DNA from: Candidatus Aminicenantes bacterium
GTDB taxonomy: Bacteria > Acidobacteriota > Aminicenantia > Aminicenantales > UBA4085
DNA length: 64,000 nucleotides
Assembly (NCBI GenBank): GCA_003141555.1
Contig: PLMN01000012.1
Coordinates: 139,487 to 203,486 of the forward strand
Direction of reading: 5' to 3'
The translations under genes were made by a program, and so were the position numbers. Below, piece after piece: positions 33,388 through 50,691 of this stretch. The number at the start of each line of letters is the position of its first letter. Position 1 is the first letter of the stretch. The notes beneath the pieces were generated by a model that saw only the letters and a program-made list of their open reading frames with translations, searched no databases and was not told the DNA's origin.

Positions 33388-33416
33388 TTGACAGGCCCGC
33401 GGGGGCGGGCTATAGT
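33388..33416 (+). promoter_or_regulatory. Sigma70 consensus promoter (TTGACA-N17-TATAGT)
   Basis: It lies about 70 nt upstream of the ATG at 33490. Confidence 0.45.
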
Positions 33417-33489
33417 CGAGCGAGGCGTGCGGCCGGGGCCGCGCTGCCGCCGGCTTGATTTGGAATCGAATTCCCAGCGAGGTGACGCC

Positions 33490-36400
33490 ATGAAATCCGC
33501 CTTCCGGCTCGGTCTTCTGATCCTGGCCTTGACGTCGGTCCTGCTGTTCCCCCAGCAGAATGACCTGTCCAAGACCAAGGTTCTCTACACGGTCGGGTAC
33601 GCCCACCTGGACACTCAATGGCGGTGGGATTACCAGACGACCATCAATGAGTACATCTGGAACACGATGGCCTTCAACTTCAAGCTCTTCGAGAAGTACC
33701 CCGATTATGTATTCAACTTCAGCGGGGCCAACCGCTACAAGATGATGAAGGAATATTACCCCGAGGAATTCGAGCGGGTGAAGAAGTACGCGGCGGCCGG
33801 CCGCTGGTTCCCGTCCGGGGCCTCGATGGAGGAGAACGACGTGCTCGCGCCGTCGCATGAGTCCATCATCCGCCAGATCCTCCTCGGGAGCGGCTTCTTC
33901 CGCCGGGAGCTCGGCGTGACGAGCCAGGAATTCATGATCCCCGACTGCTTCGGCTTTCCGGCCTCGCTGCCTTCGATCCTGGCCCATTGCGGCCTTCAGG
34001 GCTTCTCCACCCAGAAACTCACCTGGGGATCGGCCGTCGGGATCCCGTTCAACGTCGGGACCTGGATCGGGCCGGATGGCCGGTCCGTCACCGCCGCCTT
34101 AAACCCGGGCGACTATAGCGGCTTGGTCTCCGAGGACCTTAGCGCCAACGCCCAATGGAAGGCGCGGATCGAGGGTCTCGGAGCCAAGGCGGGCGCCTTC
34201 ACGGACTATATGTATTACGGGACGGGCGACGTCGGCGGGTCCCCGTCGGACGACTCGGTCGCCTGGATCGAGAAGAGCCTGAAGAGTAACCGGGATTTCA
34301 AGGTCGTCTCGGCCCCGTCCGACCAGATGTTCAAGGACCTGACGCCCGCCCAGAAGGCGAAGCTCCCGACCTACAAGGGCGAGATGCTCCTGACGAACCA
34401 TTCGTCCGGGTCGATCACCTCGCAGGCCGCCATGAAGCGCTGGAACCGGAAGAACGAGCTGGCCGCGGCACGGGCCGAGTCGGCCGCCGTCGTCGGCGAG
34501 TGGCTCGGCGGCCTGGCCTATCCGCGGGAGCGCCTGGACGAAGCCTGGCGCCTGGTGTTGGGCGGTCAATTCCACGACATCCTCCCGGGCACGAGCATTC
34601 CCCGGGCCTATGAATTCTCTTGGAACGACGAGCTCGTCGCGTCGAACCAGTTCAACGCCGTGTTCGCCGGGGCGGCCGGGGCTGTGGTCCGCGCCCTGGA
34701 CACCGAGGTGAAGGGGATCCCGTTCGTCGTAGCCAACCCCTTGGCCCTCGAGCGAGAAGATTCCGTCGAAGCCCAGGTCGCGTTCGACGCAGCGCCCAAG
34801 GCCGTCAGGGTCTTCGACCGCGACGGCAAGGAAGTCCCCTCCCAAGTGACCCGGGCCGACGGCTCCGCGCTGACGGTCCTTTTCCTGGCGAAGGTTCCCT
34901 CGCTGGGCTATGCGGTGTTCGACATTCGGCCGGCGGAGTCGCCCTGCGCCCTGGCAACGGGCTTGAAGGCGAGCGGGTTGTCGCTTGAAAACGGGAAATA
35001 CTTGGTCAAGCTCGACGCCGCGGGCGATGTCGTCAGCATCTTCGACAAGATCGCCGGCCGGGAGCTCCTTGCCGCGCCGGCCCGCCTGGAGTTCCACTAT
35101 GAGCGGCCTGCCCAATGGCCTGCCTGGAACATGGACTGGGAGGACCGGATCAAGCCGGCCTCGGGCTTCGTCGGAGGGCCGGCGAAGATCACGATCGTCG
35201 AGAACGGCCCGGCCCGGGTCGCGCTGGCCGTGGAGCGAGAGTCCCGCCATTCCAAGGTCGTCCAGGTCATACGCCTGTCCGCGGCCGGGAGCCGGGACCG
35301 GGTCGAGTTCGCATCGACCATCGATTGGGCGACGAAGGAATCCTCCCTGAAGGCGTCCTTCCCCCTGACCGTGGCCAATCCCAAGGCGACTTACAACTGG
35401 GGCGTCGGGACGATCGAGCGGGGCAACAACGATCCCGTCAAGTTCGAGGTCCCCTCGCACCAGTGGTTCGACCTGACGGACACGGACGGCCGCTACGGCG
35501 TGGCGGTCCTCGAGGACTGCAAATACGGATCCGACAAACCGGCGGACAACATCGTCCGCCTGACGCTTCTCTATACCCCCGGCGTCCGGGGATCCTACCG
35601 GGAACAGGCCTACCAGGATTTCGGACGTCACGAGATCCTCTATGCCCTTTACGGCCATTCGGGCGACTGGCGGGCGGCCGACGTCAACCTGCAGGGAGAC
35701 CGCCTAAACCAGCCCCTGGTCGTGTTCCGGGCCGCTTCCCATATCGGCTCCGCCGGCAAGGCCCTCTCGTTCCTCGCGGTCAACAACAAGGACGTCGTCG
35801 TATCCGCGGTCAAGAAAGCGGAAGCGGGTGACGAGGTGATCGTGCGCGTGGTCGAAGCGAAGGGCAAGGCGGCAAAAGGGGTGGCCCTGGCCTTCGCCGC
35901 TCCGGTCGCGGCGGCGCGCGAAGTGAACGGCCAGGAACAGGAGCTTGGCCCGGCCGCGGTCAAGGACGGGAAGCTCGTCTTCGACATCACGCCTTACAGC
36001 CTTAGGACGTTCGCCTTGAAGCTCCAGCCGCCCGCTTCGCCCCTCGCCCCGGCCGTGTCCGCGCCGGTCGACCTCCCGTACAACGTCGACGTCATCAGCC
36101 CGGACAAGCACAAATCCGACGGAGATTTCGACGGGACGGGCAGATCCTTCCCGGCCGAGCTTATTCCCGACACCATCACGAGCGACGGCATCCTCTTCAA
36201 GATGGGACCCAAGGCCGACGGCGCCCTGAACGCCGTCGCCTGCGCTGGCCAGACCATCAATCTGCCCGCAGGAAATTTCAATCGGCTCTACCTGTTGGCG
36301 GCGGCTCAGGAGGGCGGCGCCCGGGGAGGCGATCCCGCGGTCCCGACCTCTGGCTCGCGGTCCGTCTTCAAGGTGGGAGGCAAGCCGCTGGAGATCACGG

Positions 36401-37497
36401 TTGAAGCCTGGGCCGGCTTCTATGGCCAATGGGACAAGCGGCTCTGGGACGGCGACAGCGCCTCGACGAGCTTCGACCGCGGGATCAACTACGTGGGTCT
36501 CGCCCCGGCTTACGTCCGTAAGGACGCGATCGCCTGGTTTACGACCCATCGGCACCTCCGCAGCGGGGCCAATGATCCTTATATGTATGCGTACATCTAC
36601 AAATACCGGGTCGACCTCCCGGCCGGAGCGAAAGAGATCACGTTTCCGTCGAACGAGCGGATCAAGGTCTTCGCCCTCACGGCCGCGGCCAACCAGAACG
36701 ACGACGCCGCGCCAGCCCAGCCCCTGTCCGACACGCTGGCCCGCGACCGGCGTGGATTCGGCCGATTCGCGGCCGTCCCGAAGCCGCTGATCTCTCCCGA
36801 AAAGGCTTTCATCGACTACGCCCGGCCTCTCGCCGTGACCATGCTGGTCCCCGACGAGGCGGCCGAGATCCGCTACACGCTCGACGGGAGCGTGCCGACC
36901 GAGACGTCCCCCCTCTACACCGGTCCCATCAGCCTAACCCAATCGACCGTCGTCACTGCGGCCGCGTTCGACCCGGTAAGGCTTCCGAGCGTCCCCGCCG
37001 TCGCGACGTTCAGCCGGTCGCTTCCGGTCAAGAGCGCCCGCTATATCGTCCCGCCGCCCGCGGGGCGGGGAGGGGGGGGCGCGTCCGGCGGCCGGGCGCT
37101 GATCGATCTCGTCCGGGCCGCGGAACCCGGCGACCGAGCCTGGCAGATGTTCGGGCCGGCCGACCTCGACGTCGTCCTCGACCTCGGCCAGGTCCGGACC
37201 GTTGAGGGCCTCGTCCTCGGGACCCTGGAGAACCACGGCGGAAGGGTGTTCCTGCCCGTGGCCGTCGAAATCGCGACCTCGCTCGACGACAAGGACTATA
37301 AGATTGCGCTCTCTGAGAAGCTCGATCCGCCCTCGGCGGCCCGGCCGCTCTCGCTGAAAAGTCTGGCCTACGATTTGAAGAAGACGCCCGCCCGGTTCAT
37401 CCGGGTCAAGGCGAAGAATATCGGGACGCTGCCGGCCTGGCATCAGAATGCCGGGCAGCCGGCCCAGATGGCCTTCGACGAGATCCTGATCAAATAG
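33490..37497 (+). CDS. Secreted glycoside hydrolase family 38 alpha-mannosidase with C-terminal accessory domains
   Basis: Signal peptide MKSAFRLGLLILALTS. GH38 N-terminal signature (YTVGYAHLDTQWRW). 1335 aa. C-terminal CHB_HEX_C-like segment (EIRYTLDGSVPT...YTGPISL). Confidence 0.8.
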   Translation: MKSAFRLGLLILALTSVLLFPQQNDLSKTKVLYTVGYAHLDTQWRWDYQTTINEYIWNTMAFNFKLFEKYPDYVFNFSGANRYKMMKEYYPEEFERVKKYAAAGRWFPSGASMEENDVLAPSHESIIRQILLGSGFFRRELGVTSQEFMIPDCFGFPASLPSILAHCGLQGFSTQKLTWGSAVGIPFNVGTWIGPDGRSVTAALNPGDYSGLVSEDLSANAQWKARIEGLGAKAGAFTDYMYYGTGDVGGSPSDDSVAWIEKSLKSNRDFKVVSAPSDQMFKDLTPAQKAKLPTYKGEMLLTNHSSGSITSQAAMKRWNRKNELAAARAESAAVVGEWLGGLAYPRERLDEAWRLVLGGQFHDILPGTSIPRAYEFSWNDELVASNQFNAVFAGAAGAVVRALDTEVKGIPFVVANPLALEREDSVEAQVAFDAAPKAVRVFDRDGKEVPSQVTRADGSALTVLFLAKVPSLGYAVFDIRPAESPCALATGLKASGLSLENGKYLVKLDAAGDVVSIFDKIAGRELLAAPARLEFHYERPAQWPAWNMDWEDRIKPASGFVGGPAKITIVENGPARVALAVERESRHSKVVQVIRLSAAGSRDRVEFASTIDWATKESSLKASFPLTVANPKATYNWGVGTIERGNNDPVKFEVPSHQWFDLTDTDGRYGVAVLEDCKYGSDKPADNIVRLTLLYTPGVRGSYREQAYQDFGRHEILYALYGHSGDWRAADVNLQGDRLNQPLVVFRAASHIGSAGKALSFLAVNNKDVVVSAVKKAEAGDEVIVRVVEAKGKAAKGVALAFAAPVAAAREVNGQEQELGPAAVKDGKLVFDITPYSLRTFALKLQPPASPLAPAVSAPVDLPYNVDVISPDKHKSDGDFDGTGRSFPAELIPDTITSDGILFKMGPKADGALNAVACAGQTINLPAGNFNRLYLLAAAQEGGARGGDPAVPTSGSRSVFKVGGKPLEITVEAWAGFYGQWDKRLWDGDSASTSFDRGINYVGLAPAYVRKDAIAWFTTHRHLRSGANDPYMYAYIYKYRVDLPAGAKEITFPSNERIKVFALTAAANQNDDAAPAQPLSDTLARDRRGFGRFAAVPKPLISPEKAFIDYARPLAVTMLVPDEAAEIRYTLDGSVPTETSPLYTGPISLTQSTVVTAAAFDPVRLPSVPAVATFSRSLPVKSARYIVPPPAGRGGGGASGGRALIDLVRAAEPGDRAWQMFGPADLDVVLDLGQVRTVEGLVLGTLENHGGRVFLPVAVEIATSLDDKDYKIALSEKLDPPSAARPLSLKSLAYDLKKTPARFIRVKAKNIGTLPAWHQNAGQPAQMAFDEILIK

Positions 37498-37596
37498 AGG
37501 ATCGAGAGCGGCCGACCGCAAAGCCCCGCGCCGGCGAATTGTCAAATTAGCTGAGTGAATTCAGAGAACCGTCTCGATACGAATGGGGAAAATGAA

Positions 37597-39183
37597 ATGA
37601 AAAAGCTGAACAGGGTTTTATGGTTATGTCTATTCCTGGCTGCTCTTACGCCCGTGTTCTCGCAGTCCGGCATCGTTCGGGGGCAGGGGATGAAAGTGGG
37701 CTCCGCGTATTTAGCCACGAACATCCATGTTACGCTCAACCCCTACGGCATGGCCCCGCTTGCGGCCTTGGCGGAGTTCACGACCCAGTTCCCTTGCGAC
37801 GTCATGGTCCAGGTGCAAGGCGACATTCCGATCAACAAGGACTTCAAGGACAACAGCACCTCCCATTCCATCCCGATCGTCGGACTGTATCCCGGCCAGG
37901 TGAACTCGGTCGTCCTGACCCTCTACCGTCATCATGGCGATCCGGAGATCCAGACGCTCTCGATCCTGACGGCCCCTCTTCCCGCCTGGTTTCCGACGAT
38001 CGAGATCAATACCGCCGTTCCCGCCCTCATGGAGCCGGGCTTCAATGTCTGCGATTTCGCCTACACCACGGGCACGGGCGTCATCGTCGATCCGTACATC
38101 TTCGACGCCGAAGGCCAGGTCCGGGCTTATTTCGACTTGTCGAATACGCCGGGGCAGGCCTTCCCCTTCGAGCGGATGGCGAACGGGAACTTCATCTTCG
38201 GCGTCGGGCCGTCGATCTACGAGATCGACATCATGGGCAAGATCCGGAACAAGCTCACCTTGCCCGGCTACGGCTTCCACCACGACATCCGGGAGATGCC
38301 CGATGGAAGCCTCATCGCCAACGTGAACAAGGACGGCACCCAGATCATCAACAGCACGGGCGTCGTCAACAGCATCGAGGACCGTATGATCCAGATCAAC
38401 CGGACGACCGGGGCCATCATGGGTGAATGGGACATGCGGGCCCTGCTCACCGTGAGCCGCAATGAGGTCATCAACAACACCGGCGATTGGTTCCACATGA
38501 ACGGAATCTGGTACAGCGTCCCGGACGATTGCTTCATCATCTCGGGCCGTCACCAGGCCGTGATCAAGGTCACGCGCGACAACAAGCTCAAGTGGATCCT
38601 GGCCGGCCACGACGGCTGGGGGAACTCCGGCTGGGACGGATCGGGCCCCAGTCCCGCGCCGTATCTCCTCACCGCCCTCGACCCCAACGGCAATCCGGAA
38701 CCCGACATCGTCCAGAACGGCGAGGCCGCCGCCGCCGACTTCGACTGGACCTGGGGCCAGCATTGTCCCAGCCTTTTGCCGAACGGGGACCTCTTCTGCT
38801 TCGACAACGGCTTCCGCCGCTGGTTCCAGGGCATCGGCGGCTTGTACTCCCGCGGCGCGGAATTCGCCATCGACGAGAAGGCCATGACGGTCCGGCAGAT
38901 CTGGCAATACGGCGCGGATCGAGGAGTCGAGACGTATTCGACGATCATCAGCTCCGCCGACCGCCTGCCGATCACCCAGAACCGCCTGATCTCGCCCGGA
39001 ATCGTCCAGATTCCGCCCGGGAGCACTGCTGTTTGCTATTCCAAGATGATTGAGGTCACGTATCCGGCCGGGCAGATCGTCTTCGAGGCCACCTCCCATT
39101 TCAAGAACCTGCTGTCCCAGACGGCCGGCAACGGGGGATTCGACCTGACCTATCGCTCGCACCGGATCCCGTCCCTTTACTGA
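37597..39183 (+). CDS. Aryl-sulfate sulfotransferase (ASST)-like beta-propeller protein
   Basis: Signal peptide. Motifs resembling the ASST family (FHHDIREMPDGS, GDWFHMNGI). Confidence 0.5.
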   Translation: MKKLNRVLWLCLFLAALTPVFSQSGIVRGQGMKVGSAYLATNIHVTLNPYGMAPLAALAEFTTQFPCDVMVQVQGDIPINKDFKDNSTSHSIPIVGLYPGQVNSVVLTLYRHHGDPEIQTLSILTAPLPAWFPTIEINTAVPALMEPGFNVCDFAYTTGTGVIVDPYIFDAEGQVRAYFDLSNTPGQAFPFERMANGNFIFGVGPSIYEIDIMGKIRNKLTLPGYGFHHDIREMPDGSLIANVNKDGTQIINSTGVVNSIEDRMIQINRTTGAIMGEWDMRALLTVSRNEVINNTGDWFHMNGIWYSVPDDCFIISGRHQAVIKVTRDNKLKWILAGHDGWGNSGWDGSGPSPAPYLLTALDPNGNPEPDIVQNGEAAAADFDWTWGQHCPSLLPNGDLFCFDNGFRRWFQGIGGLYSRGAEFAIDEKAMTVRQIWQYGADRGVETYSTIISSADRLPITQNRLISPGIVQIPPGSTAVCYSKMIEVTYPAGQIVFEATSHFKNLLSQTAGNGGFDLTYRSHRIPSLY

Positions 39184-39293
39184 CGGGCGGGGCGGTCGAT
39201 TTCCCGCCGCGCGCCGCCCGGGTTGATTTTCAGCCCGTTGTCCTTTATGCTGGCCTTGCCCGCGTTTCGGGCCTTGAGCTCGCCATCACGCCC

Positions 39294-40634
39294 ATGAACG
39301 GACCATTGAACATCCTCGTCGTCGACGACGAAGCCAACATTCGGAGGACCCTGTCGGTCTATCTGGAAACCGAAGGGCACCGGGTCGTCGGCGTCGGCAA
39401 TTCCCGGGACGCCCTGGCCGAGGCGCGGCGCCGCTCGTTCGATCTCGCGTTCGTCGACCTGCGCCTCGGGACTTCGGACGGAATGGATCTCATCCCCGCC
39501 CTCCTGGCCGCGACGCCGTGGCTGAAGATCGTGGTCATCACCGCCTTCGCCTCGATCGACACGGCGGTCGAAGCCATCCGCCGCGGCGCGACCGATTACA
39601 TCCCCAAGCCGTTCACGCCGGCTCAGATCGGCCTGTCCGTCCGGAAGGCGTTCGAGATGAGGACGCTCGAGCAACGCGTGGCCACCCTCCAGGAAGATCT
39701 CGTCCGGACGAGGCCGGAGTTCGACTTCGCGAGCGCCCATCCCGCCATGAGGAAAGCCGTGGAGCTCGCCCGCCAGGCGGCGGCCTCGGAGGCGACGATC
39801 CTTCTCCGCGGAGAGAGTGGGACGGGAAAGACCGTCCTGGCCCGGGCGGTCCACGCCTGGAGCCCGCGGGCCGCGCGTCCGTTCGGCGTCGTGTCCTGCC
39901 CCGCCTTCTCGTCGGAGCTCCTGGAAAGCGAGCTTTTCGGCCATGCAAAAGGCGCATTCACGGGTGCGGTTCGGGAGAATCCCGGCCGCATCGCCGTCTG
40001 CGAAGGGGGCACGCTCTTCCTCGACGAGATCGGGGATCTGCCGCTCGGGCTCCAGCCGAAAATCCTGAGATTCGTCCAGGACCGGGGGTACGAGCGCGTG
40101 GGCGATCCTGTCCCGCGGCGAGCGGACGTGCGCCTGATTGCCGCCACGAACCTCGACCTCGAGCGCGCGATGAAAGAGGGCCGCTTCCGGGAGGACCTCT
40201 ACTACCGACTGGCCGTCATTCCCATCGATCTCCCTCCCTTGCGGGAACGGCCGGACGATGTGGAGGCTCTGGCCGGCCGGCTGCTGGCGTTTTATGCCCG
40301 GGCCAACCACCGGACCTTTGCCGGATTCTCGCCCGAGGCCTTGCGCGCGCTCCAGAGCTATTCCTGGCCGGGCAACATCCGGGAGCTCAGCAACGTCATC
40401 GAGCGGGCGGCCATCATGTGCCGGACCGACCGCATCGGGATCGAATTCCTCCCTGCCGGGCTGCAGCCCGGGGAGTCCGCACCGAAGGTCGGCGATAGGA
40501 TCTCCCTGGACAAAGTCGAGGAACAGCACATCCGCAAGGTTCTCGCTTCCGCGAAGTCCCTGCAGGAAGCCGCTGACATTCTTGGGATCGACCAAGCCAC
40601 CCTCTGGCGTCGCCGCAAAAAATACGATATCTGA
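39294..40634 (+). CDS. Sigma54-dependent Fis-family response regulator (NtrC-type: REC plus AAA+ plus HTH)
   Basis: REC domain (ILVVDDE...D54). Sigma54-interaction motifs GESGTGKT and GAFTGA. C-terminal Fis-type HTH. Confidence 0.9.
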   Translation: MNGPLNILVVDDEANIRRTLSVYLETEGHRVVGVGNSRDALAEARRRSFDLAFVDLRLGTSDGMDLIPALLAATPWLKIVVITAFASIDTAVEAIRRGATDYIPKPFTPAQIGLSVRKAFEMRTLEQRVATLQEDLVRTRPEFDFASAHPAMRKAVELARQAAASEATILLRGESGTGKTVLARAVHAWSPRAARPFGVVSCPAFSSELLESELFGHAKGAFTGAVRENPGRIAVCEGGTLFLDEIGDLPLGLQPKILRFVQDRGYERVGDPVPRRADVRLIAATNLDLERAMKEGRFREDLYYRLAVIPIDLPPLRERPDDVEALAGRLLAFYARANHRTFAGFSPEALRALQSYSWPGNIRELSNVIERAAIMCRTDRIGIEFLPAGLQPGESAPKVGDRISLDKVEEQHIRKVLASAKSLQEAADILGIDQATLWRRRKKYDI

Positions 40635-40784
40635 CCTTTCTCCCGCCGGATTTCCGCCAACTAACTTATTTTTTGCGTTGCAAAATTCAATGTTATTTTG
40701 TATCGCCCATTGCATAATGCAATATGGGGTGTTTTAAATAGTGTTTATTTTACTTATATTCAGATGGTTACCGACGCATCCGCT

Positions 40785-40800
40785 TGGCATGGGACTTGCA
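40785..40800 (+). promoter_or_regulatory. Sigma54 (-24/-12) promoter TGGCAT-N5-TTGCA
   Basis: The CTTGGCATGGGACTTGCATTG match lies about 25-40 nt upstream of the kinase start. Upstream palindromes TTGCATAATGCAA (40717-40729) and TTTTGCgtTGCAAAA are candidate enhancer sites. Confidence 0.5.
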
Positions 40801-40822
40801 TTGTAAATAGACGGCGAGGAGT

Positions 40823-42673
40823 ATGAATATGCTTGGAATTCGTCAAAAAGTCATCCTTGGTTTTGCCGGCCTGTTAATCATCATCCTGGCCATCGGCGTC
40901 CAAAGCATCGTGACCCTGACCGGCTTGGGAGAATCGATCGATGTCATCTTGAGGGAAAACTACCTGAGCGTCATCGCCTGCCAGGAGATGAAGGAAGGTC
41001 TCGAGCGGATCGACAGCGGCCTGCTTTTCACTCTCCTCGGCGACCGGGCCCAGGGCGAAGATCTCATCCTCAAAAACGAAGCCGTGTTCGAGAAGGCCCT
41101 CCAGACCGAGCTGAACAACATCACCGTGCCGGGGGAAGGCAAGACGGCCGAAAGGCTCCGGGGCCTTTATGCCACGTACCGGGACACGCTGCCCCAGGCC
41201 GTCGCCGCGGATCGGCCCCTGGCCCTGCGCCACGATGCTTATTTTTCATCGCTCTTCCCTCTGTTCGGTCAAATCAAGGCGGCGGCCGAAGAGATCCTCC
41301 AGATGAACCAGCGGAACATGAGCGAGGCGAACGACCGGGCGCGCCTGAGCGCCTCCCAGGCCCGAAGCGGCATGTATCTCCTCCTCGGCTTGTGCACCCT
41401 CATCGCCATCGCGTTCATGCATTTCACCGGCCGCTGGATCCTGAGGCCCGTGAAGCGTTTGACCCTCTCCGCGGACGAGATCCGGCGGGGAAACCTCGAT
41501 CTCGTCGTCCCCAGCGATTCTCATGACGAGATTGGAACTCTGGCGGAATCGTTCAATGCGATGGCCGCCAGCCTGCGCGAACTCCGCCGGACCGACCAGG
41601 CTCGTCTCCTCCGCGTCCAGCGCGCGACACAGGAGGCCTTTGACCGGCTCCCCGATGCCGTCGCGGTCGTCGACCTCGAAGGCCGCGTCGAGGTGTCGAC
41701 CGAATCGGCCAAGACCGTCTTCGGCCTCCGGCCGGGCGCGCCGATCTTCGATTTGCCGTACGGGCTGGCCGATTACTTCAAGGAAGCGCTGGCGGAAGGC
41801 CGGCCCGTTCCGGCCGAATCCCAGGCGCCGATGATCCAACGGTTCGTGGGCGGAGAGGAGCGCTTCTTCCGCCCGGAGGCGGTTCCCATCCGGGACGCCG
41901 ACCGGCAGCCGACCGGAGCGATTTTCGTTCTCCACGACGTCACCCAGCTCCGCCAGCAAAACGAGCTGAAGACGAGCGTCATCCGCGCGGTTTCCCACCA
42001 GCTCAAGACGCCCATGACGTCCATCCGGATGGCAATCCACGTCCTCCTCGAGGAAAAGATCGGAAGCTTGAGCGAGAAGCAGGCCGAAGTCCTCTTGGCA
42101 GCGCGCGAAGACAGCGACCGGCTCCAGGAAATCTTGAGCAATCTCCTCGATATCGGCCGAACGGAGTCGGGCAAGGCCGAGGTCTACAACTATCAGTCCT
42201 TCTCCCCGCAGTCGCTGGTTATGGACGCCTTGGAACCGTTCCGGCGGACGGCCCAGGAGAAGGGCATCGCCCTGGGAGTCGAACTCCGCGGCAACCTTCC
42301 CGACGTCTGGACGGACCGGACCCGCACCAGTCACGTTTTCGCCAACCTCCTCTCCAACGCCATCCGCCACACGCCGGCGGGCGGGCGCCTTTTCCTCGCG
42401 GCAAAAGAGGAAGAGGACGTCGTCCGGTTCGTGGTTTCCGATACGGGGGAAGGTATCCCGGCCGAGTTCGTGGGCCATGTTTTCGAGCCGCTGTTCCGCG
42501 TCCCCGGCCGCGATTCCGCTGGCGGCCCGGGGCTCGGCCTAGCCACCGCCAAGGAGATCGTCGAGGCCCAGGGAGGGACGATCTCCGTCGAAAGCCGGGA
42601 GGGGAAGGGGACGACGTTCTCGTTCACCCTTCGCCGGACGGATCGGATCGATTCCAAGGAGGTTTCCCAATGA
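40823..42673 (+). CDS. Sensor histidine kinase (periplasmic sensor, HAMP, PAS-like, HisKA, HATPase_c)
   Basis: Two TM segments flank a ~150-aa loop. H-box AVSHQLKTPMTSI. N, G1 and G2 boxes (LLSNAIRHT, DTGEGI, GGPGLGLA). An alternative start at 40829 has better RBS spacing. Confidence 0.85.
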   Translation: MNMLGIRQKVILGFAGLLIIILAIGVQSIVTLTGLGESIDVILRENYLSVIACQEMKEGLERIDSGLLFTLLGDRAQGEDLILKNEAVFEKALQTELNNITVPGEGKTAERLRGLYATYRDTLPQAVAADRPLALRHDAYFSSLFPLFGQIKAAAEEILQMNQRNMSEANDRARLSASQARSGMYLLLGLCTLIAIAFMHFTGRWILRPVKRLTLSADEIRRGNLDLVVPSDSHDEIGTLAESFNAMAASLRELRRTDQARLLRVQRATQEAFDRLPDAVAVVDLEGRVEVSTESAKTVFGLRPGAPIFDLPYGLADYFKEALAEGRPVPAESQAPMIQRFVGGEERFFRPEAVPIRDADRQPTGAIFVLHDVTQLRQQNELKTSVIRAVSHQLKTPMTSIRMAIHVLLEEKIGSLSEKQAEVLLAAREDSDRLQEILSNLLDIGRTESGKAEVYNYQSFSPQSLVMDALEPFRRTAQEKGIALGVELRGNLPDVWTDRTRTSHVFANLLSNAIRHTPAGGRLFLAAKEEEDVVRFVVSDTGEGIPAEFVGHVFEPLFRVPGRDSAGGPGLGLATAKEIVEAQGGTISVESREGKGTTFSFTLRRTDRIDSKEVSQ

Positions 42674-42753
42674 CGGATTTTATCCTGGTCCTGGCCATTG
42701 TCGTACTGTTCTGGCTCGGCGCTCTCTACGTCCGGGCGTGCGACAAGCTGTAA
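42670..42753 (+). CDS. 27-aa hydrophobic peptide translationally coupled to the kinase (KdpF-like or leader peptide)
   Basis: ATGA overlap with the kinase stop. Sequence MTDFILVLAIVVLFWLGALYVRACDKL. Confidence 0.35.
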   Translation: MTDFILVLAIVVLFWLGALYVRACDKL

Positions 42754-42758
42754 CTCCC

Positions 42759-42842
42759 ATGTTCGAACTCATCGCCCTCCTCGCCGGCCTCTTGCTTATC
42801 GGCTATTTGATCTTTACGGTCCTCCGACCGGAGAAATTTTAA
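42759..42842 (+). CDS. kdpF: KdpF, K+-transporting ATPase small subunit
   Basis: MFELIALLAGLLLIGYLIFTVLRPEKF has the typical KdpF length and C-terminal LLRPEKF-like ending. It lies immediately upstream of kdpA. Confidence 0.6.
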   Translation: MFELIALLAGLLLIGYLIFTVLRPEKF

Positions 42843-42857
42843 AGCGATAGGTGACCC

Positions 42858-44585
42858 ATGAATATCCCCGGATGGATCCAACTGGTTCTCTTCCTCGGCG
42901 TCCTCTGCCTGCTGACCAAGCCGGTCGGCCTGCTCCTCAGCCGGGTCCTGGATCCCGAGGGCCGGACGCCGTTCGATCCCGTGCTCAAGCCCATCGAACG
43001 GCTCCTGTATCGTCTCCTCGGCGTCGATCCCAAAGCGGAACAGACCTGGAAACAATACGCCTTTTCGCTCTTCGCCTTCAGCCTGGTCGGCTTGCTGTTC
43101 ACCTATGCCGTTCTCCGCCTTCAACACATCCTGCCCTTGAACCCCCAGAAGCTCGGGCCGGTCCCGCCCGACCTGGCCTTCAACACGGCCGTCAGCTTCT
43201 CGACCAACACCAACTGGCAGAACTATGCGGGCGAGAGCACGCTCTCCTATTTTTCGCAGATGGTGGGGCTCGCTTTCCATAATTTCGCTTCGGCGGCCGC
43301 GGGCATCGCCGTGGCGGCGGCCCTCGTCCGCGGCATCGCCCGGCGTTCGGCAAAAACGCTCGGCTCCTTCTGGGCGGATCTCGTCCGGGTGAACCTCTAC
43401 CTCCTCCTCCCGATCTGCCTCGTCCTATCGCTCGTCCTGGTGTCGCAGGGCGTCATCCAGAATTTCCAGCCCGCCCGCCAGGCGGCCCTGATCGAGCCGG
43501 CCGGGACTGTCGCGACGCAGACGATCCCCCAGGGCCCGGCCGCCTCGCAGATCGCGATCAAGATGCTGGGCACGAACGGGGGCGGGTTCTTCAACGCCAA
43601 TGCCGCCCATCCCTATGAAAACCCGACGCCGTTCTCGAATTTCCTCCAGATGCTGGCCATCTTCCTCATCCCGGCCGGCCTGACCTATTACCTGGGGACG
43701 AGCGTCAAGAACCGAAGGCACGGCTGGGCGGTCTGGACGGCGATGGCCGTCCTGTTCCTGGCCGGGGTTTTCGTCTGCTGGCGGGCTGAAAGCGTCGGCA
43801 ATCCCCGCCTGACGGCTCTTGGCCTGGATTCGGCCGGCGGCAATATGGAAGGCAAGGAAGTCCGGTTCGGCATTTTCAATTCGAGCCTCTTCGCCACGGT
43901 CACGACCGACGCTTCCTGCGGCGCGGTCAACGCCATGCACGACTCGTTCACGCCCCTCGGCGGATTGGTCCCCCTGTTCAACATGCAGCTCGGCGAGGTG
44001 GTATTCGGGGGGGTGGGCGCGGGATTGTATGGGATTCTCGTCTTCGTCGTCCTGGCGGTGTTCCTGACCGGCCTGATGGTCGGGCGGACGCCGGAATACC
44101 TGGGCAAGAAGATCGAGGGTTATGACGTGAAAGTCGCCGTCCTGACCCTGCTCATCCTGATCTTCAGCATCCTCGGCTTCGCCGCTTGGGGCGCGGTCAG
44201 CCGGCCGGGGTTGGCCGGCCTTGGGAATAAAGGCCCCCACGGTCTGAGTGAGATCCTCTATGCATTCTCCTCGGCGACCGGCAACAACGGCAGCGCCTTC
44301 GGCGGATTGAGCGGGAACTCGCCCTGGTACAATGTGACCTTGGGACTGGCCATGTTCTTAGGCCGGTTTTTCATGATCGTTCCGGTCCTGGCCTTGGCCG
44401 GCAGCCTCGGCCGGAAAAAGCTCCTCCCTCCGAGTGAAGCGAGCTTTCCGGTGGGCGGGACGATGTTCATCATCATCCTGATCGGCACGATCGTCATCGT
44501 CGGGGCGCTGACCTACCTTCCCGCTCTGGCCCTCGGCCCGATCGTCGAGCATTTCACGATGTCCGGGTCGGCTCTCGTCTATTAG
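42858..44585 (+). CDS. kdpA: Potassium-transporting ATPase subunit KdpA
   Basis: KdpA N-terminus (WIQLVLFLGVL...) with a multi-TM K+ channel-like fold. 575 aa. Confidence 0.9.
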   Translation: MNIPGWIQLVLFLGVLCLLTKPVGLLLSRVLDPEGRTPFDPVLKPIERLLYRLLGVDPKAEQTWKQYAFSLFAFSLVGLLFTYAVLRLQHILPLNPQKLGPVPPDLAFNTAVSFSTNTNWQNYAGESTLSYFSQMVGLAFHNFASAAAGIAVAAALVRGIARRSAKTLGSFWADLVRVNLYLLLPICLVLSLVLVSQGVIQNFQPARQAALIEPAGTVATQTIPQGPAASQIAIKMLGTNGGGFFNANAAHPYENPTPFSNFLQMLAIFLIPAGLTYYLGTSVKNRRHGWAVWTAMAVLFLAGVFVCWRAESVGNPRLTALGLDSAGGNMEGKEVRFGIFNSSLFATVTTDASCGAVNAMHDSFTPLGGLVPLFNMQLGEVVFGGVGAGLYGILVFVVLAVFLTGLMVGRTPEYLGKKIEGYDVKVAVLTLLILIFSILGFAAWGAVSRPGLAGLGNKGPHGLSEILYAFSSATGNNGSAFGGLSGNSPWYNVTLGLAMFLGRFFMIVPVLALAGSLGRKKLLPPSEASFPVGGTMFIIILIGTIVIVGALTYLPALALGPIVEHFTMSGSALVY

Positions 44586-44594
44586 GGGACGAAT

Positions 44595-46616
44595 ATGATC
44601 GCCAAAACTCATTCGCTGTTCGATCGCCGGATCATCGGCCCGGCCGTGATCGATTCCTTCCGGAAGCTGAATCCGGTCTTTCTCCTCAAGAATCCGGTCA
44701 TCTTCGTGACCGAAGTCGGCGCGGCCCTCTGCACCCTGGCCGTGGCGTTCCGCGGGGCCGGCGAAGCGCCGGGATTCATCTTCCAGATCGCCCTCTGGCT
44801 CTGGTTCACCGTGCTCTTCGCCAATTTCGCCGAAGCCATGGCCGAGGGCCGGGGCAAGGCCCAGGCCGACGAGCTCCGCAAGGCTCGGACGCGGACCCAG
44901 GCCAGTTTGCTCCAGGCCGACGGTTCGGTCCGCATCGTCGCCGCGGAGGAGCTGCGAAAGGGCGACTTCATCGTCGTCGTCGCCCGGGAAGTCATTCCCG
45001 CGGACGGCGAAATTGTCGAAGGTGCGGCTACGGTGGATGAATCGGCCATCACCGGGGAGTCCGCCCCTGTCATCCGGGAAGCGGGCGGCGACCGGAGCGC
45101 CGTGACCGGCGGCACCCGGGTGCTGTCCGATCGGATCAAGGTCCGGGTCACGGCCAACCCCGGCGAGAGTTTCCTTGATCGGATGATCGGGCTGGTCGAG
45201 GGCGCCCACCGCCAGAGAACGCCGAACGAAATCGCCCTGACCATCCTGCTCGCGGCGCTCACGATCATCTTTCTGGTCGTGGTCATCAGTCTTCGGCCCT
45301 TCGGAACCTATTCGGGCGTGTCCTTGACCGTGACGGTTCTCGTGGCCCTCCTTGTCTGTCTCATTCCGACGACCATCGGCGGCCTGCTCAACGCCATCGG
45401 GATCGCGGGCATTGACCGGATGGTCCAGAAAAACGTCCTGGCCATGAGCGGCCGGGCCGTCGAGGCGGCCGGTGACGTCGACGTCCTTCTCCTGGATAAA
45501 ACCGGGACGATCACCCTGGGCGATCGCCAGGCATCGGCCTTCATCCCAGCGCCTGAGGTCACCGTCGAGGACCTGGCCAACGCGGCCCAGCTCGCCTCCC
45601 TGGCCGACGAGACGCCCGAGGGGCGGAGCATCGTCGTCCTGGCCAAAAAATACGGCTTCCGCGGCCGGACCATTTCCGAAATGCCCGGGGCCGTGTTCAT
45701 TCCCTTCTCGGCCCAGACGCGGATGAGCGGCCTGGATTTCGAGGGGCGCCGCATCCGCAAAGGCGCGGCCGTCGCCATCCAGGGATTCACCGGGAAGCCG
45801 ATCGCCGTTGAAGTCCAGGACGCGGTCAGCTACATCTCCCTTTCGGGCGGGACTCCGCTCCTCGTCGCGGACGGTTCGAATGTTCTAGGGGCCATCCATT
45901 TAAAAGACATCGTCAAGGGGGGCCTTCGCGACCGCTTCGAGCGATTCCGGGCCATGGGCATCAAGACGGTCATGATCACCGGGGACAACCGCCTGACCGC
46001 GGCCGCCATCGCCCGCGAGGCGGGCGTCGACGACTTCGTGGCCGAGGCCAAGCCCGAGGACAAGCTCACTTTGATCCGGCGGGAGCAGACGGCCGGCCAC
46101 CTCGTGGCCATGACCGGCGACGGGACGAACGACGCGCCGGCCCTTGCCCAGGCGGACGTCGGGATGGCCATGAACACCGGAACGCAAGCGGCCAAAGAGG
46201 CGGGCAACATGGTCGACCTCGACTCCAATCCCACCAAGCTGATCGAGGTCGTGGAGATCGGAAAACAAATGCTCATCACCCGCGGGGCACTGACGACGTT
46301 CAGCATCGCCAACGATGTGGCCAAGTATTTCGCCATCATCCCCGCCCTGCTGGTCGGCGTCTTCCCGGTCATCGCCCCGCTCAACATCATGGGCCTCCGT
46401 TCCCCGCAGAGCGCGATCCTGAGCGCGGTCATCTTCAATGCGCTCATCATCGTCGCCCTGATTCCCCTGGCCCTCCGTGGGGTGAAGTTCCGGCCTTTGG
46501 GGGCGGCCGCGCTTCTCCGGCGGAACCTCTTGATCTACGGCCTCGGCGGGCTCATCGCCCCCTTCCCGGGCATCAAGATCGTGGATATCATCGTGAACGC
46601 TCTCCATCTCGTGTGA
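44595..46616 (+). CDS. kdpB: Potassium-transporting P-type ATPase subunit KdpB
   Basis: DKTGTIT phosphorylation motif, [18 protein letters not shown] hinge and TGES motif. Confidence 0.9.
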
Positions 46617-46638: not shown

Positions 46639-47232
46639 ATGAAATCCTGGATTCGAGAGATTCGGACATCGCTCCGGGCAACGGCGGCCCTGGTGGTGCT
46701 TCTTTGCGGGCTTTATCCCCTGGCCGTCTGGGGGCCGGCCCAGATCCTCTTCCCGGCGAAGGCCAACGGCTCGCTTCTCGTTCGCGACGGAAAAGTCGTC
46801 GGCTCCGAGCTCATCGGCCAGGGATTCACGGGCGCGGGGTATTTCCATCCCCGTCCTTCGGCCGCGGGCGGTGGATACGACGCCCTGGCCTCGGGGGGCA
46901 GCAACCTGGGACCGTTGTCGAAAGACTTAATCGAAAGCGTCCGGGGGCGCGCGGCCGCCTATCGCGCCGAGAACGGTCTGGAGCCCGGCGCGGCGGTCCC
47001 GGCCGATGCCGTGACCGCTTCGGGCAGCGGACTCGACCCCCATATCTCGCTTCAAAACGCTGGCCTCCAGACTCCGCGCGTTGCCCGGGCCCGGGGCTTG
47101 ACCGAAGCCGCGGTCCGGGAGCTGATCGGATCATTGGCCGAAGGCCGCGACCTGGGGATCTTCGGCGAGGCGAGGGTGAATGTCTTGAAGCTCAATCTCA
47201 CCTTGGATGAAAAACGCGATGGCGGACGATAG
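46639..47232 (+). CDS. kdpC: Potassium-transporting ATPase subunit KdpC
   Basis: Single N-terminal TM. KdpC signature (GSGLDPHIS). 197 aa. Confidence 0.85.
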   Translation: MKSWIREIRTSLRATAALVVLLCGLYPLAVWGPAQILFPAKANGSLLVRDGKVVGSELIGQGFTGAGYFHPRPSAAGGGYDALASGGSNLGPLSKDLIESVRGRAAAYRAENGLEPGAAVPADAVTASGSGLDPHISLQNAGLQTPRVARARGLTEAAVRELIGSLAEGRDLGIFGEARVNVLKLNLTLDEKRDGGR

Positions 47233-48934
47233 GGCCAACGAGTTCCTGCAGCTGATCCGACAATCGCAGCGCGGACGTCTGAAGATCTATCTCGGCTACA
47301 GCGCCGGCGTGGGGAAGACCTACCAGATGCTCCAGGAGGGCCACCGCCTTAAGAGCGACGGCATCGATGTCGTGATCGGCCTGCTCGAGACGCATGGCCG
47401 GACGGCGATCGCCGAGCTGGCCAAGGGACTCGAAGTCGTACCGCGGCGCCGCCGGGATTATCGGGGGATCGCCGTCGAGGAAATGGACGTGGATGCCGTC
47501 CTAGCCCGAAAACCGCAGGTCGCCCTGATCGACGAGCTGGCCCACACCAACGCTCCCGGCAGCCGGAACCCGAAGCGCTATGAGGACGTGCTGGACGTGC
47601 TGGCCGCGGGAATCCACGTCATCACCACCTTGAACGTCCAGCACCTGGAAAGCCTTTACAACATCGTGGAGAATGCCGTCGGGGTCAAGGTGCGGGAACG
47701 GATCCCGGATTCGGTGCTGGTCGAGGCCGACCAGATCGTCGACGTGGATCTGGCGACCGAGGATCTCCGCAAGCGCCTGGAGGACGGCAAGATCTATCCG
47801 CAGGAGCGCATCGCGACCGCTTTGAGCAATTTTTTCATCCCTTCCAACCTCGAGAAGCTGCGAGAACTGACCTTGCGCGAGCTGGCCGCCCAGATCGATT
47901 TCCGCCGGAGGGAAGCCAAGAGCGAGGCGGGCGAGACCGAAGGGGACCAGGTGATGGTCTGCCTGAGCTCGCATGGCCCGAACAGCGAAAAGCTCCTCCG
48001 GTACGGTTCGCGTCTCGCCGGAAAGCTCAACCGCAACTGGTACGCGGTCTATGTCCAGACCCCTTCCGAAGAGGCCACGGTCATCGACGCGAAAGTCCAG
48101 CGCATGCTCTCGGATACGCTGACCTTGGCCAAACAGCTAGGCGCGCTCGTGTTCACCTACAAGGGGGAGAATATCGCGGATACGATCCTCCGCTTCGCCC
48201 GGGAATACCGCGTTGGCCACATCGTCGTCGGCAAGTCGGTCCCCAAGCCGGTTTGGAAGAGGATCGGCCGGAACAAGGCCGTCGTGGAGGACCTCATTGC
48301 TGAGGCGAGGGGGGTGACGGTGATCGTCGTCGATCCCTGCCCGGCCGTCGCGCCGGCCCTCGCCCGGCCCCGGCCGGAGGATGACCGGCGGGAAGAGGGG
48401 TTCGGGAAGGCGGACGCCGAAGGGCCGGAGGCAGCCCCCTCGGCGCCCATCGTGCGCGATCTGCTCAGCCCTTGGCTTTCCCCGCGGCGCATCGTCCTAT
48501 GGGGAGTCCCCGTCGCCAAAGAACAGGTCCTTCGGACGCTTGCCGAGACGGTCAAAAACGAAGACGGCGTTTCCGACCCGGAGAAGCTCTACGCGGACAT
48601 CCTGATCCGGGAGGAGCAGGGATCCACGTTCTTCAACGAGGGCGTCGCTTTCCCTCACGTCCGGGTCGAAGACCTGGCCGCTCCGGTCGTAGCCCTGGGA
48701 TTGACGCGCGGGGGCGTGGCGGATATCTCGACCGACAAGCCGATCGAGCTCGTCTTCCTCATCCTTTCTCCCGCCGGGAACCCTCCCCTTCAAGTGAAGC
48801 TGCTGGGGGCGGCGAGCCGGGCCGCCCAGAGCCGTCCTCTTCTTCAAGCCCTGCGCTCGGCGGAGACGCCCGACGAAGTCCTGCGGGCCATCGTGAACTG
48901 GGAAGCGTCGATTCCGCGCTCCCTGGGCGCGTAA
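47207..48934 (+). CDS. KdpD N-terminal sensor domain plus Usp domain fused to a PTS EIIA(Ntr)/PtsN-like domain, with no TM or histidine-kinase region
   Basis: The KdpD-N P-loop region reads LKIYLGYSAGVGKTYQM...ALIDELAHTN. The Usp domain reads VMVCLSSHGPNSEKL.... The C-terminal EGVAFPHVRVE...ELVFLILSPAGNPPLQVKLL... matches the PTS_EIIA_2 His-site pattern. Confidence 0.8.
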   Translation: MKNAMADDRANEFLQLIRQSQRGRLKIYLGYSAGVGKTYQMLQEGHRLKSDGIDVVIGLLETHGRTAIAELAKGLEVVPRRRRDYRGIAVEEMDVDAVLARKPQVALIDELAHTNAPGSRNPKRYEDVLDVLAAGIHVITTLNVQHLESLYNIVENAVGVKVRERIPDSVLVEADQIVDVDLATEDLRKRLEDGKIYPQERIATALSNFFIPSNLEKLRELTLRELAAQIDFRRREAKSEAGETEGDQVMVCLSSHGPNSEKLLRYGSRLAGKLNRNWYAVYVQTPSEEATVIDAKVQRMLSDTLTLAKQLGALVFTYKGENIADTILRFAREYRVGHIVVGKSVPKPVWKRIGRNKAVVEDLIAEARGVTVIVVDPCPAVAPALARPRPEDDRREEGFGKADAEGPEAAPSAPIVRDLLSPWLSPRRIVLWGVPVAKEQVLRTLAETVKNEDGVSDPEKLYADILIREEQGSTFFNEGVAFPHVRVEDLAAPVVALGLTRGGVADISTDKPIELVFLILSPAGNPPLQVKLLGAASRAAQSRPLLQALRSAETPDEVLRAIVNWEASIPRSLGA

Positions 48935-49005
48935 GTCGGGGGGAGCAATAAAGCAGATTTTCCGGCCTTAAAATTTCGTAAGATCAGCTCTGAAAGGGGA
49001 TGTCC

Positions 49006-49908
49006 ATGAAAAAACTTATTACCGCTTTCGCGGCCTCGGCGCTTTTCCTTGCTTCCGCAACGGTTTTCGCCCAAGCCTCTCCCGCCGATGAACCCAAATC
49101 GCCGTACACGTTTACCGGCAATATTTCCTTAGCCAGCCAATACATCTTCCGCGGACTCGCCCAGACCAACGGTTATCCCGCGCTCCAGGGAGGAATGGAT
49201 TTTTCCCATGCGAGCGGATTCTATGCCGGCATCTGGCTCTCCAACATTTCCTGGTTCACGGACCAGAACGCCAACATCAAGTCGGCCCCGGTTTCGCTCG
49301 CCTCGCCCGGCAGCGTCGGCGCCCCCTATGCGCCGAATCAAAGCAATGCGGCCAGCCTCGAGTGGGATTTCTACGCGGGTTTTAAGAACAGTTTTGCCGG
49401 CGGCAATTGGAACTATGACATAGGCATCATCCAGTACTACTACCCGGGCCGCTACGAAAACATCGGGGCCTACCGCAACCCAAACACGATCGAAATCTAC
49501 GGCTTGATCGGGTACAAATGGGTGTCCTTGAAGTATTCCAAAGGGATAAGCGCCACCACGTTTGGGGTTAACGATTCCAAGGGCGCCGATTATATTGACC
49601 TCTCCGCGACGATTCCCCTGGGCGAGAGTGGTTTCAACCTGTTGGCCCATGTCGGCAAATACAATTTTCCGGGCAAGGCCAATGTCGGATACTGGGGAAC
49701 CTCCGGCGGCAACAACGACTTCTTTGACTATACCGACTACAAGTTGGGGTTAACAAAAGAACTATGGGGCTGTGTCTTCGGATTCGCTTGGACGCATGCC
49801 AACACAAAGGACACCGCCCCAGATGGCCAGACGACCGCTTACTTGAACGCGTTTGGCAAGAACATCGGGGGCCATCGTGTCGGGCTGTCCGTCACAAAGA
49901 CCTTTTGA
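49006..49908 (+). CDS. TorF-family putative outer-membrane porin
   Basis: Signal peptide. Motif ...SQYIFRGLAQTNGYPALQGGMDFSHASGFYAGIWLSN is typical of the TIGR02001/TorF porin family. C-terminal F. Confidence 0.6.
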   Translation: MKKLITAFAASALFLASATVFAQASPADEPKSPYTFTGNISLASQYIFRGLAQTNGYPALQGGMDFSHASGFYAGIWLSNISWFTDQNANIKSAPVSLASPGSVGAPYAPNQSNAASLEWDFYAGFKNSFAGGNWNYDIGIIQYYYPGRYENIGAYRNPNTIEIYGLIGYKWVSLKYSKGISATTFGVNDSKGADYIDLSATIPLGESGFNLLAHVGKYNFPGKANVGYWGTSGGNNDFFDYTDYKLGLTKELWGCVFGFAWTHANTKDTAPDGQTTAYLNAFGKNIGGHRVGLSVTKTF

Positions 49909-50581: not shown

Positions 50582-50691
50582 CACCAACCTCCCCGCATTC
50601 ATGATGATCCGGCTTCCGGGCGAATGTCAAGAGATTTGCATCATGATGATCGCGCGCCGGGCTCGCTTTCATGGGCTTGGTTCCCGCCGCC

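Follow-up and report, generated by a model that had tools for sequence, protein, structure and literature searches.

The spacer between an NtrC-type response regulator gene and a sensor histidine kinase gene of an Aminicenantes bacterium (positions 40635-40828, about 188 bp) probably contains all the elements by which sigma-54 (RpoN) would control a kdp operon for potassium uptake. This spacer is AT-rich, while the whole stretch of DNA that was analysed (64 kb, hereafter the window) is 64% GC. The sequence that had been flagged in an earlier note on this DNA is, judging from motif matches and from related loci, very probably a genuine sigma-54 promoter of the kinase-kdp operon, preceded by two upstream activator sites (UAS).

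The core of the promoter, TGGCAT-GGGAC-TTGCA, lies on the + strand at 40785-40800, exactly where the earlier note had placed it. Its GG (40786-7) and GC (40798-9) are 12 nt apart. This GG-N10-GC arrangement sits within TGGCAC-N5-TTGCW with 10 of the 11 consensus positions matched, which confirms the two doublets and their spacing. When at most one mismatch is allowed, it is the sole match to TGGCAC-N5-TTGCW on both strands of the window. About 0.74 such matches are expected by chance in the whole window (128 kb, both strands), and about 0.001 in the 188-bp intergenic region in the correct orientation. Scoring with a sigma-54 position weight matrix (PWM), as the earlier note had proposed, was done with a matrix trained on 69 orthologous promoters alone, the window being excluded. 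The site reaches 24.3 bits, and the runner-up in 128 kb reaches 12.2 bits. Consensus and PWM scans of the 64-kb window found no further UAS or -24/-12 sites that would point to other regulon members. The sequence TGTCAAGAGATTTGCA at 50625 was considered as a further -24/-12 site and was rejected, as it is without the GG. The promoter motif ends 28 nt upstream of the kinase ATG at 40829. Canonical spacing from the -12 element predicts a transcription start at about 40811 (40810-40813). A start there would give an 18-nt leader containing the Shine-Dalgarno sequence GAGGAG (40816-40821, + strand), which lies 7 nt before the ATG; orthologs have a purine-rich peak at the equal offset.

Starting from an alignment of 18 kinase homologues, 80 homologous loci were retrieved from species-representative genomes, and 79 of these have upstream sequence. 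The sources are Aminicenantes, Thermodesulfobacteriota (Syntrophorhabdus, Desulfomonile, Syntrophus, and Syntrophobacter), Deferrimicrobium, and Krumholzibacteria-like and Nitrospirales metagenome-assembled genomes (MAGs). The best kinase homologues carry Aminicenantes source names. Searches by tblastn with the window proteins found that the cluster of response regulator (RR), histidine kinase (HK), kdpFABC, and KdpD'N/EIIA recurs in most of the 80 loci. A GG-N10-GC element that matches 9-11 of the 11 consensus positions is present at the equivalent place in 69 of the 79 loci. Its distance to the kinase start is 22-35 nt in 67 of these 69, and the outliers are at 43 and 52 nt. Elements of this kind have a background rate of 1.0e-4 per nt over the 2.7 Mb of sequence in the loci, which amounts to 0.0056 for each search window of 54 nt. 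A fortuitous -24/-12 match does not account for the occurrence of the element in 69/79 loci against a chance of 0.6%. The earlier note had named loss of the GG and GC in orthologous regions as a sign against the promoter, and these 69 loci keep both doublets.

Among the orthologous promoters GG-N10-GC is invariant, and there is free variation in the N5 spacer and in the flanks. The G at position +6 and the TT before the GC fit the extended consensus YTGGCACG-N4-TTGCW across the 69 loci. Ten loci are exceptional. In five of them an additional gene or leader separates the kinase gene from the promoter, which is farther upstream, and three loci with such displaced promoters (L049, L061, and L062) have the UAS at the usual offsets from the promoter. 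The remaining exceptional loci carry near-miss variants, in which the spacer is N6, the GC is changed to GT, or the GG is lost. Lateral transfer of the module as a whole probably connects the 80 loci, because RR identity is about 70% between phyla, and they are not fully independent observations. Neutral spacer positions are nevertheless randomised among the loci. Between the window and its closest relative (L001, with a kinase that is 89% identical) the spacer has diverged, and the UAS, the promoter, and the Shine-Dalgarno sequence are the only surviving blocks.

Anchoring the spacers on the promoter revealed two 13-bp dyads with the consensus ccTTGCA-www-TGCAAkg. Both dyads are present in 63 loci with a separation of 31-33 bp (32 bp in 49 loci). 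Counted from the T of TGGCA, the equivalent of the distal site (UAS-1) starts at -106 to -110 in most loci, and the proximal site (UAS-2) begins between -74 and -78 in 63 loci. In the window, UAS-1 is TTGCAAAATTCAA at 40678-40690 and matches TTGCA-N3-TGCAA at 9 of 10 positions. UAS-2 is TTGCATAATGCAA at 40710-40722, a perfect palindrome of the form TTGCAT-A-ATGCAA. These two sites are the only matches to TTGCA-N3-TGCAA with at most one mismatch in the 64-kb window. The UAS matrix derived from orthologs places UAS-2 at the top of the window with 25.7 bits, followed by UAS-1 with 23.3 bits, and the next best match has 12.5 bits. The 13-mer of UAS-2 is identical in the closest relative despite diverged flanks. 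The centres of UAS-1 and UAS-2 lie at about -127 and -95 from the predicted transcription start, and the 32 bp between them correspond to three helical turns. The arrangement is that of a bacterial enhancer, which has at least two dyads about 70-150 bp upstream of a promoter and in helical phase. The geometry is also rigid across phyla, with two TTGCA-N3-TGCAA sites 32 bp apart and held within +/-2 bp of their distance from the -24 element.

The proposal that palindromic, enhancer-like sites lie upstream of the promoter is thus upheld, with both sites conserved in sequence and position in 63 loci, and the details of the two palindromes need correction. The proximal palindrome TTGCAT-A-ATGCAA is real, perfect, and kept in orthologous loci, although it was given as 40717-40729, which is 7 nt off. 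The distal palindrome, TTTTGCGTTGCAAAA, is present as well, at 40671-40685 and not at about 40676-40690. As an enhancer site it does not hold: it is not conserved, and the conserved UAS-1 overlaps it in a different register. In its symmetric reading, TTTTGC-GTT-GCAAAA, it is free of mismatches in the window alone. Of 69 orthologous regions, 63 have 4 or more of its 12 positions mismatched at that place, for which reason it was rejected as a conserved element, and the closest relative has TTGCCGAATTCAA there. It is probably a by-product of the overlapping UAS-1.

The gene immediately upstream of the spacer (39294-40634, + strand) encodes an NtrC-type response regulator of the enhancer-binding protein (EBP) class, and the earlier suggestion of such a neighbour is confirmed by Pfam matches to Response_reg, Sigma54_activat, AAA_lid_14, and HTH_8. 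The protein comprises a REC domain with D55, a sigma-54 AAA+ domain (Sigma54_activat, E = 4.7e-62), and a Fis-type HTH_8 domain. Its translation contains the Walker A motif GESGTGKT and an intact GAFTGA, and the closest solved structures are NtrC-family 4l4u, LuxO, and NtrC1. It is the presumed activator of the kdp promoter. The regulator gene is not expected to be transcribed from the sigma-54 promoter because it is located upstream of it. A search for rpoN and for an RpoN-box, covering the window and 1.35 Mb of fetched loci, found neither. Sigma-54 is assumed to be present in the genome from the GAFTGA-type activators, and 75 GAFTGA-like motifs occur among the fetched loci.

We infer that the palindromes are bound by the adjacent regulator and not by another EBP. 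Given a real promoter, it is unlikely that the palindromes are bound mainly by an EBP encoded elsewhere, such as a general-stress regulator of the DVU3305 type, with the adjacent regulator acting elsewhere or in part. In Desulfovibrio vulgaris, DVU3305 recognises GTTGCA-N3-TGCAAC, which has nearly the same core as the UAS of the window, and it also targets kdp, binding upstream of kdpF at a place that overlaps the site of DVU3334 (PMC3333781). When the 42-aa DNA-binding domains (DBDs) alone are compared (PMC4641369), the window regulator is nearest, among the D. vulgaris EBPs, to DVU3381 (24/41 residues identical), and it shares 19/41 with DVU3334 and 17/41 with DVU3305. The recognition helix is 9/15 identical to DVU3334 and to DVU3381 alike, and the DBD is not specifically closest to DVU3334. 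Additionally, two loci that have no adjacent regulator gene (L027 and L032) keep the sites. On the other side stands the linkage of the regulator to its putative sites. In most of the 80 loci and in several phyla, the regulator gene is found immediately upstream, at the equivalent position and in the same orientation. It is co-conserved with the UAS, and cognate pairs are usually recognised by such tight linkage of an EBP to a sigma-54 promoter with UAS. DVU3305 is linked to Lon-type protease genes and not to kdp, whereas the window regulator is linked to kdp. The sites and the proteins differ too: the flanks are cc...kg here and G...C in the DVU3305 motif, and the recognition helix reads DQATLWRR in the window regulator and SKSLLQYK in DVU3305. 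No second UAS copy is found in the 64 kb, as a dedicated local regulator predicts.

The AT-rich stretch between UAS-2 and the promoter is a presumed DNA-bending region. It holds a degenerate IHF-like site, ATTCAGATGGTTA (40758-40770, + strand), with two mismatches to WATCAANNNNTTR. Of 70 regions, 31 have a copy of WATCAANNNNTTR with at most one mismatch in this stretch, where shuffles predict 6.8, and about two thirds of these IHF-consensus matches have their start between -26 and -28 and read along the + strand. Position-wise conservation in the spacers peaks at -28 to -22 and at -17/-16. Protein-assisted bending is only suggested for the window because the IHF-like copy there carries two mismatches.

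Within this AT-rich stretch there is also a sigma-70-like site, TTTAAA-16-TATATT (40733-40760), which matches 9 of 12 consensus positions. No terminator was found between the regulator gene and the UAS or the kinase gene, and basal read-through from the regulator gene is therefore possible. It is very improbable, however, that the operon depends on the sigma-70-type site or on read-through and that the -24/-12 match is an accident. A 9/12 match is weak evidence in 36%-GC DNA. The region aligns with the IHF-like/AT-rich block of the relatives and not with conserved -35/-10 hexamers, and the site was rejected. Read-through may add basal expression, but it leaves the conserved elements unexplained, and the frequency of GG-N10-GC among the loci speaks against an accidental match. 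A c-di-AMP riboswitch is known for kdp in Bacillus. Here, a search for Rfam families covering the spacer (39100-43000, E <= 1) gave nothing beyond noise, the leader is only about 18 nt, and a riboswitch or leader RNA was rejected. The least probable reading, that the palindromes are repressor operators or an RNA hairpin or terminator of the upstream regulator gene, can point to the use of palindromes of this size by repressors and to the U-rich stretch that follows the small hairpin of TTTTGC-GTT-GCAAAA, but this hairpin is AU-rich, weak, and not conserved, its region folds no better than shuffles (z = -0.5), and the conserved sites are 75-107 bp away from the promoter core, on its upstream side and in fixed helical phase, which is typical of EBP sites and too distant for steric repression.

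The sigma-54 promoter is followed by seven genes on the + strand, and Pfam domains confirm the kinase-kdp operon that the earlier note had described. The first gene (40829-42673) encodes a sensor histidine kinase with a 4HB_MCP-like sensor, HAMP, PAS, HisKA, and HATPase_c. As read from its homologues, the true start of the kinase is ATG 40829 (MLGIRQK...) and not 40823, because the homologues are 613-614 aa long and begin with MLG. The second gene (42670-42753) encodes a 27-aa membrane micro-protein, MTDFILVLAIVVLFWLGALYVRACDKL, and its start overlaps the kinase stop (ATGA). A homologous peptide (…FFGLCxLYxRACERL) is found in about 50 of 66 loci, and no Pfam or NCBIfam family matched it. It is followed by kdpF (42759-42842; Potass_KdpF PF09604, E = 1.6e-6; TIGR02115), and by the genes of the K+-transporting P-type ATPase, kdpA (42858-44585; Pfam KdpA, E = 1e-235), kdpB (44595-46616; Pfam E1-E2_ATPase/Hydrolase), and kdpC (46639-47232; Pfam KdpC, E = 3e-70). 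The last tightly linked gene (47207-48934) encodes a KdpD-N/Usp/EIIA fusion with matches to KdpD (E = 2e-90), PTS_EIIA_2 (E = 1e-18), and Usp. This protein is without a histidine-kinase domain, and NCBIfam names it a 'KdpD-like non-kinase potassium sensor'. Its EIIA domain is of the Ntr/Fru type and has the active-site motif GVAFPH, and the fusion is conserved across loci. After the overlap between the kinase gene and the next ORF, no gap in the operon exceeds 25 nt. For this reason a promoter inside the operon, between the kinase gene and kdpF, was rejected. The tight packing leaves no room for one, so the promoter before the kinase gene would drive the whole kdp operon.

These elements suggest the following mechanism. 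Sigma-54 RNA polymerase would bind at 40785-40800 as a closed complex that is unable to initiate alone. The sensor kinase encoded by the operon would phosphorylate the regulator on D55, and we infer that the inducing signal is K+ limitation. The phosphorylated regulator would then assemble on the palindromes at 40678-40690 and 40710-40722, which are on the same face of the helix. Bending of the AT-rich DNA, which has an IHF-like site in many relatives, would allow the GAFTGA loops of the activator to touch sigma-54. ATP hydrolysis would open the promoter, and transcription would proceed from about 40811 through the kinase gene, the 27-aa gene, kdpFABC, and the KdpD-N/Usp/EIIA gene. Induction would reinforce itself because the kinase gene is the first gene of the operon.

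A wider reading, which we put forward tentatively, is that the locus represents a KdpE-independent and laterally mobile module for kdp control, and that no family of this kind has yet been described. Such a module would combine a sigma-54/NtrC-type two-component switch with unusually rigid enhancer geometry, a kinase-less KdpD/Usp-EIIA fusion, and the 27-aa membrane peptide, which had no earlier annotation. It occurs in Aminicenantes, in several lineages of Thermodesulfobacteriota, in Deferrimicrobium, and in the Krumholzibacteria-like and Nitrospirales MAGs. A literature search found nothing relevant on sigma-54 in Aminicenantes or on a KdpD-EIIA fusion. If the reading is true, the module would explain the control of kdp transcription in many KdpE-less bacteria. 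Additionally, the fusion of a KdpD serine-kinase/Usp unit (for the serine-kinase role of KdpD, see PMC11018627) to a phosphorylatable EIIA would tie PTS-Ntr signalling directly to the post-translational regulation of the pump. The analysis provides a concrete regulatory map of potassium uptake in Aminicenantes, an uncultured lineage at the level of a phylum, with a promoter, two activator sites, a predicted transcription start, and operon limits. The promoter and UAS matrices derived from orthologs can be used directly for annotating the regulon in metagenomes.

Control of kdp by sigma-54 and an EBP is already known from Desulfovibrio, and what is new here is its occurrence, as predicted from sequence, in Aminicenantes and relatives. 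To our knowledge, it has so far been documented experimentally only in Desulfovibrio vulgaris, and the present loci suggest that this mode of control is widespread. In D. vulgaris Hildenborough, the NtrC-type response regulator DVU3334 binds upstream of kdpF, as determined by DAP-chip (Rajeev et al., 2011, PMC3333781). The operon encodes kdpFABC, a KdpD-N/Usp protein, a PAS kinase, and DVU3334 itself (PMC3333781). DVU3334 has been classified as a potassium-uptake EBP with GAFTGA (Kazakov et al., 2015, PMC4641369). Its tandem sites are GTTACATTTTGTAAC (-148) and CTTTCATTTTGATAC (-127), and the predicted sigma-54 promoter is AGTGGCACGTCAAATGCTC (-61) (PMC3333781, PMC4641369). In Syntrophobacter fumaroxidans, the ortholog pair consists of the response regulator Sfum_2622 and the target kinase gene Sfum_2621 (PMC3333781), which suggests the same RR-HK arrangement as in the window.

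By analogy with the DVU3334 system, an NtrC-type regulator with GAFTGA would control kdpFABC from a sigma-54 promoter in the window. The two systems share the 5-3-5 dyad design TTRCA-N3-TGYAA (TTACA-TTT-TGTAA in D. vulgaris and TTGCA-N3-TGCAA in the window). Both have a separate PAS kinase and a kinase-less KdpD-N/Usp protein instead of the classical KdpD, and both are without KdpE. They differ in several respects. The gene order in D. vulgaris is promoter-kdpFABC-kdpD'-HK-RR with an autoregulated RR, whereas that in the window is RR followed by promoter-HK-orf27-kdpFABC-kdpD'/EIIA, where the RR is not part of the operon. The two sites are separated by 21 bp in D. vulgaris and by 32 bp in the window, and the central base of the half-site is A/T in the former and G/C in the latter. 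The KdpD-N/Usp protein of the window has an additional EIIA domain. The hosts are Desulfobacterota in one case and Aminicenantes/Acidobacteriota in the other.

The classical sigma-54 promoters glnAp2/NtrC, nifH/NifA, and Pu/XylR have a GG/GC core, two dimer sites about 80-140 bp upstream, an IHF-type bend, and a GAFTGA activator. The window resembles them in its -24 GG and -12 GC, two sites on the same face, an AT-rich stretch, and a GAFTGA AAA+ activator. Unlike in those systems, the target operon encodes a K+ pump and starts with the gene of the cognate kinase, and the distance between the UAS and the promoter is held within +/-2 bp across phyla. Compared with classical IHF promoters, the IHF-like site of the window is unusually near the -24 element, with about 14 bp between its end and that element.

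In Escherichia coli, kdpFABC is transcribed from a sigma-70 promoter that is activated by the OmpR-family regulator KdpE with KdpD, and EIIA-Ntr is a free protein that binds KdpD. The window has the same pump and a KdpD-N/Usp module within the operon, but it is without KdpE and without the KdpD kinase domain. Activation is predicted to proceed through sigma-54 and an EBP in place of KdpE at a sigma-70 promoter, and the EIIA domain is fused to KdpD-N/Usp instead of being a free EIIA-Ntr. Species that lack KdpE mostly carry a kinase-less KdpD, for which only a post-translational role has been seen (Silberberg et al., 2024, PMC11018627). The loci described here bear on this point, as these KdpE-less species appear to have a dedicated sigma-54 transcriptional switch.

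In three of the homologous loci (L028, L033 and L064) kdpFABC does not directly follow the kinase gene. Here another good sigma-54-type motif, of which TGGCATACTGTTTGCT is an example, is found immediately 5' of kdpF/kdpA on the + strand (L028:14231, L033:4186 and L064:7212). This arrangement suggests that the regulon is divided between two sigma-54 promoters there. In two Aminicenantes loci, L016 and L026, an insert of about 2 kb separates the regulator gene from the kinase gene. The promoter motif before the kinase is present, and an additional copy lies directly 3' of the regulator gene on the + strand, as TGGCACCCCTCTTGCT at L016:8088 and as TGGCACCCATCTTGCT at L026:3238. The insertion may be flanked by a duplicated promoter.

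L028 also belongs, together with L031 and L034, to a sub-group labelled delta-proteobacterial MAGs that has no adjoining regulator gene. Here the histidine kinase gene is directly followed by KdpD-N/EIIA and a divergent kdpABC (37-60% identity). The two TTGCA-N3-TGCAA palindromes upstream of the promoter are found at -176/-145 in L028, which is more distant than usual, and none were seen at the usual offsets in L031 and L034.

Within the window, a hydrophobic 27-aa ORF, MTDFILVLAIVVLFWLGALYVRACDKL, precedes kdpF (42670-42753, + strand), and its ATG overlaps the stop codon of the kinase gene on its other side. A homologous peptide, M-x-D-...-FFGLC-x-LY-x-R-ACERL, is found in about 50 of 66 loci from several phyla; a subset of Aminicenantes loci is devoid of it and keeps only kdpF. 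The peptide had no match among the families of Pfam and NCBIfam. One possibility is that it serves the Kdp pump as an accessory subunit or a regulator that has escaped annotation.

The kdp region is flanked by two GH38 alpha-mannosidase-family genes (24979-27465, - strand, and 33388-37497, + strand), one of which encodes a protein of 1369 aa whose C-terminal domains are CHB_HEX/Fn3-associated, and by an arylsulfotransferase (ASST) gene (37555-39183, + strand). These flanking genes point to a glycan-degrading neighbourhood with no relation to the sigma-54 kdp promoter. Downstream, a gap of 65 nt separates the kdp operon from a Gcw_chp-family gene (49000-49908, + strand), and no terminator-like site was found between them on the + strand. 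The closest relative, L001, also has this gene downstream (91% identity); in the remaining loci it went undetected by tblastn.

The protein encoded at 47207-48934 (+ strand) joins a kinase-less KdpD N-terminal domain and a Usp domain, which together correspond to the NCBIfam 'KdpD-like non-kinase potassium sensor', to a C-terminal PTS EIIA domain of the PtsN/FruA type that retains the active-site motif GVAFPH. Nearly all loci keep this fusion, and a literature search turned up no description of it. In E. coli, KdpD is bound by free EIIA-Ntr. The N-terminal domain of E. coli KdpD, a serine kinase, inhibits KdpB (PMC11018627). In light of these two interactions, the fusion looks like a hard-wired form of the E. 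coli EIIA-Ntr-KdpD interaction.
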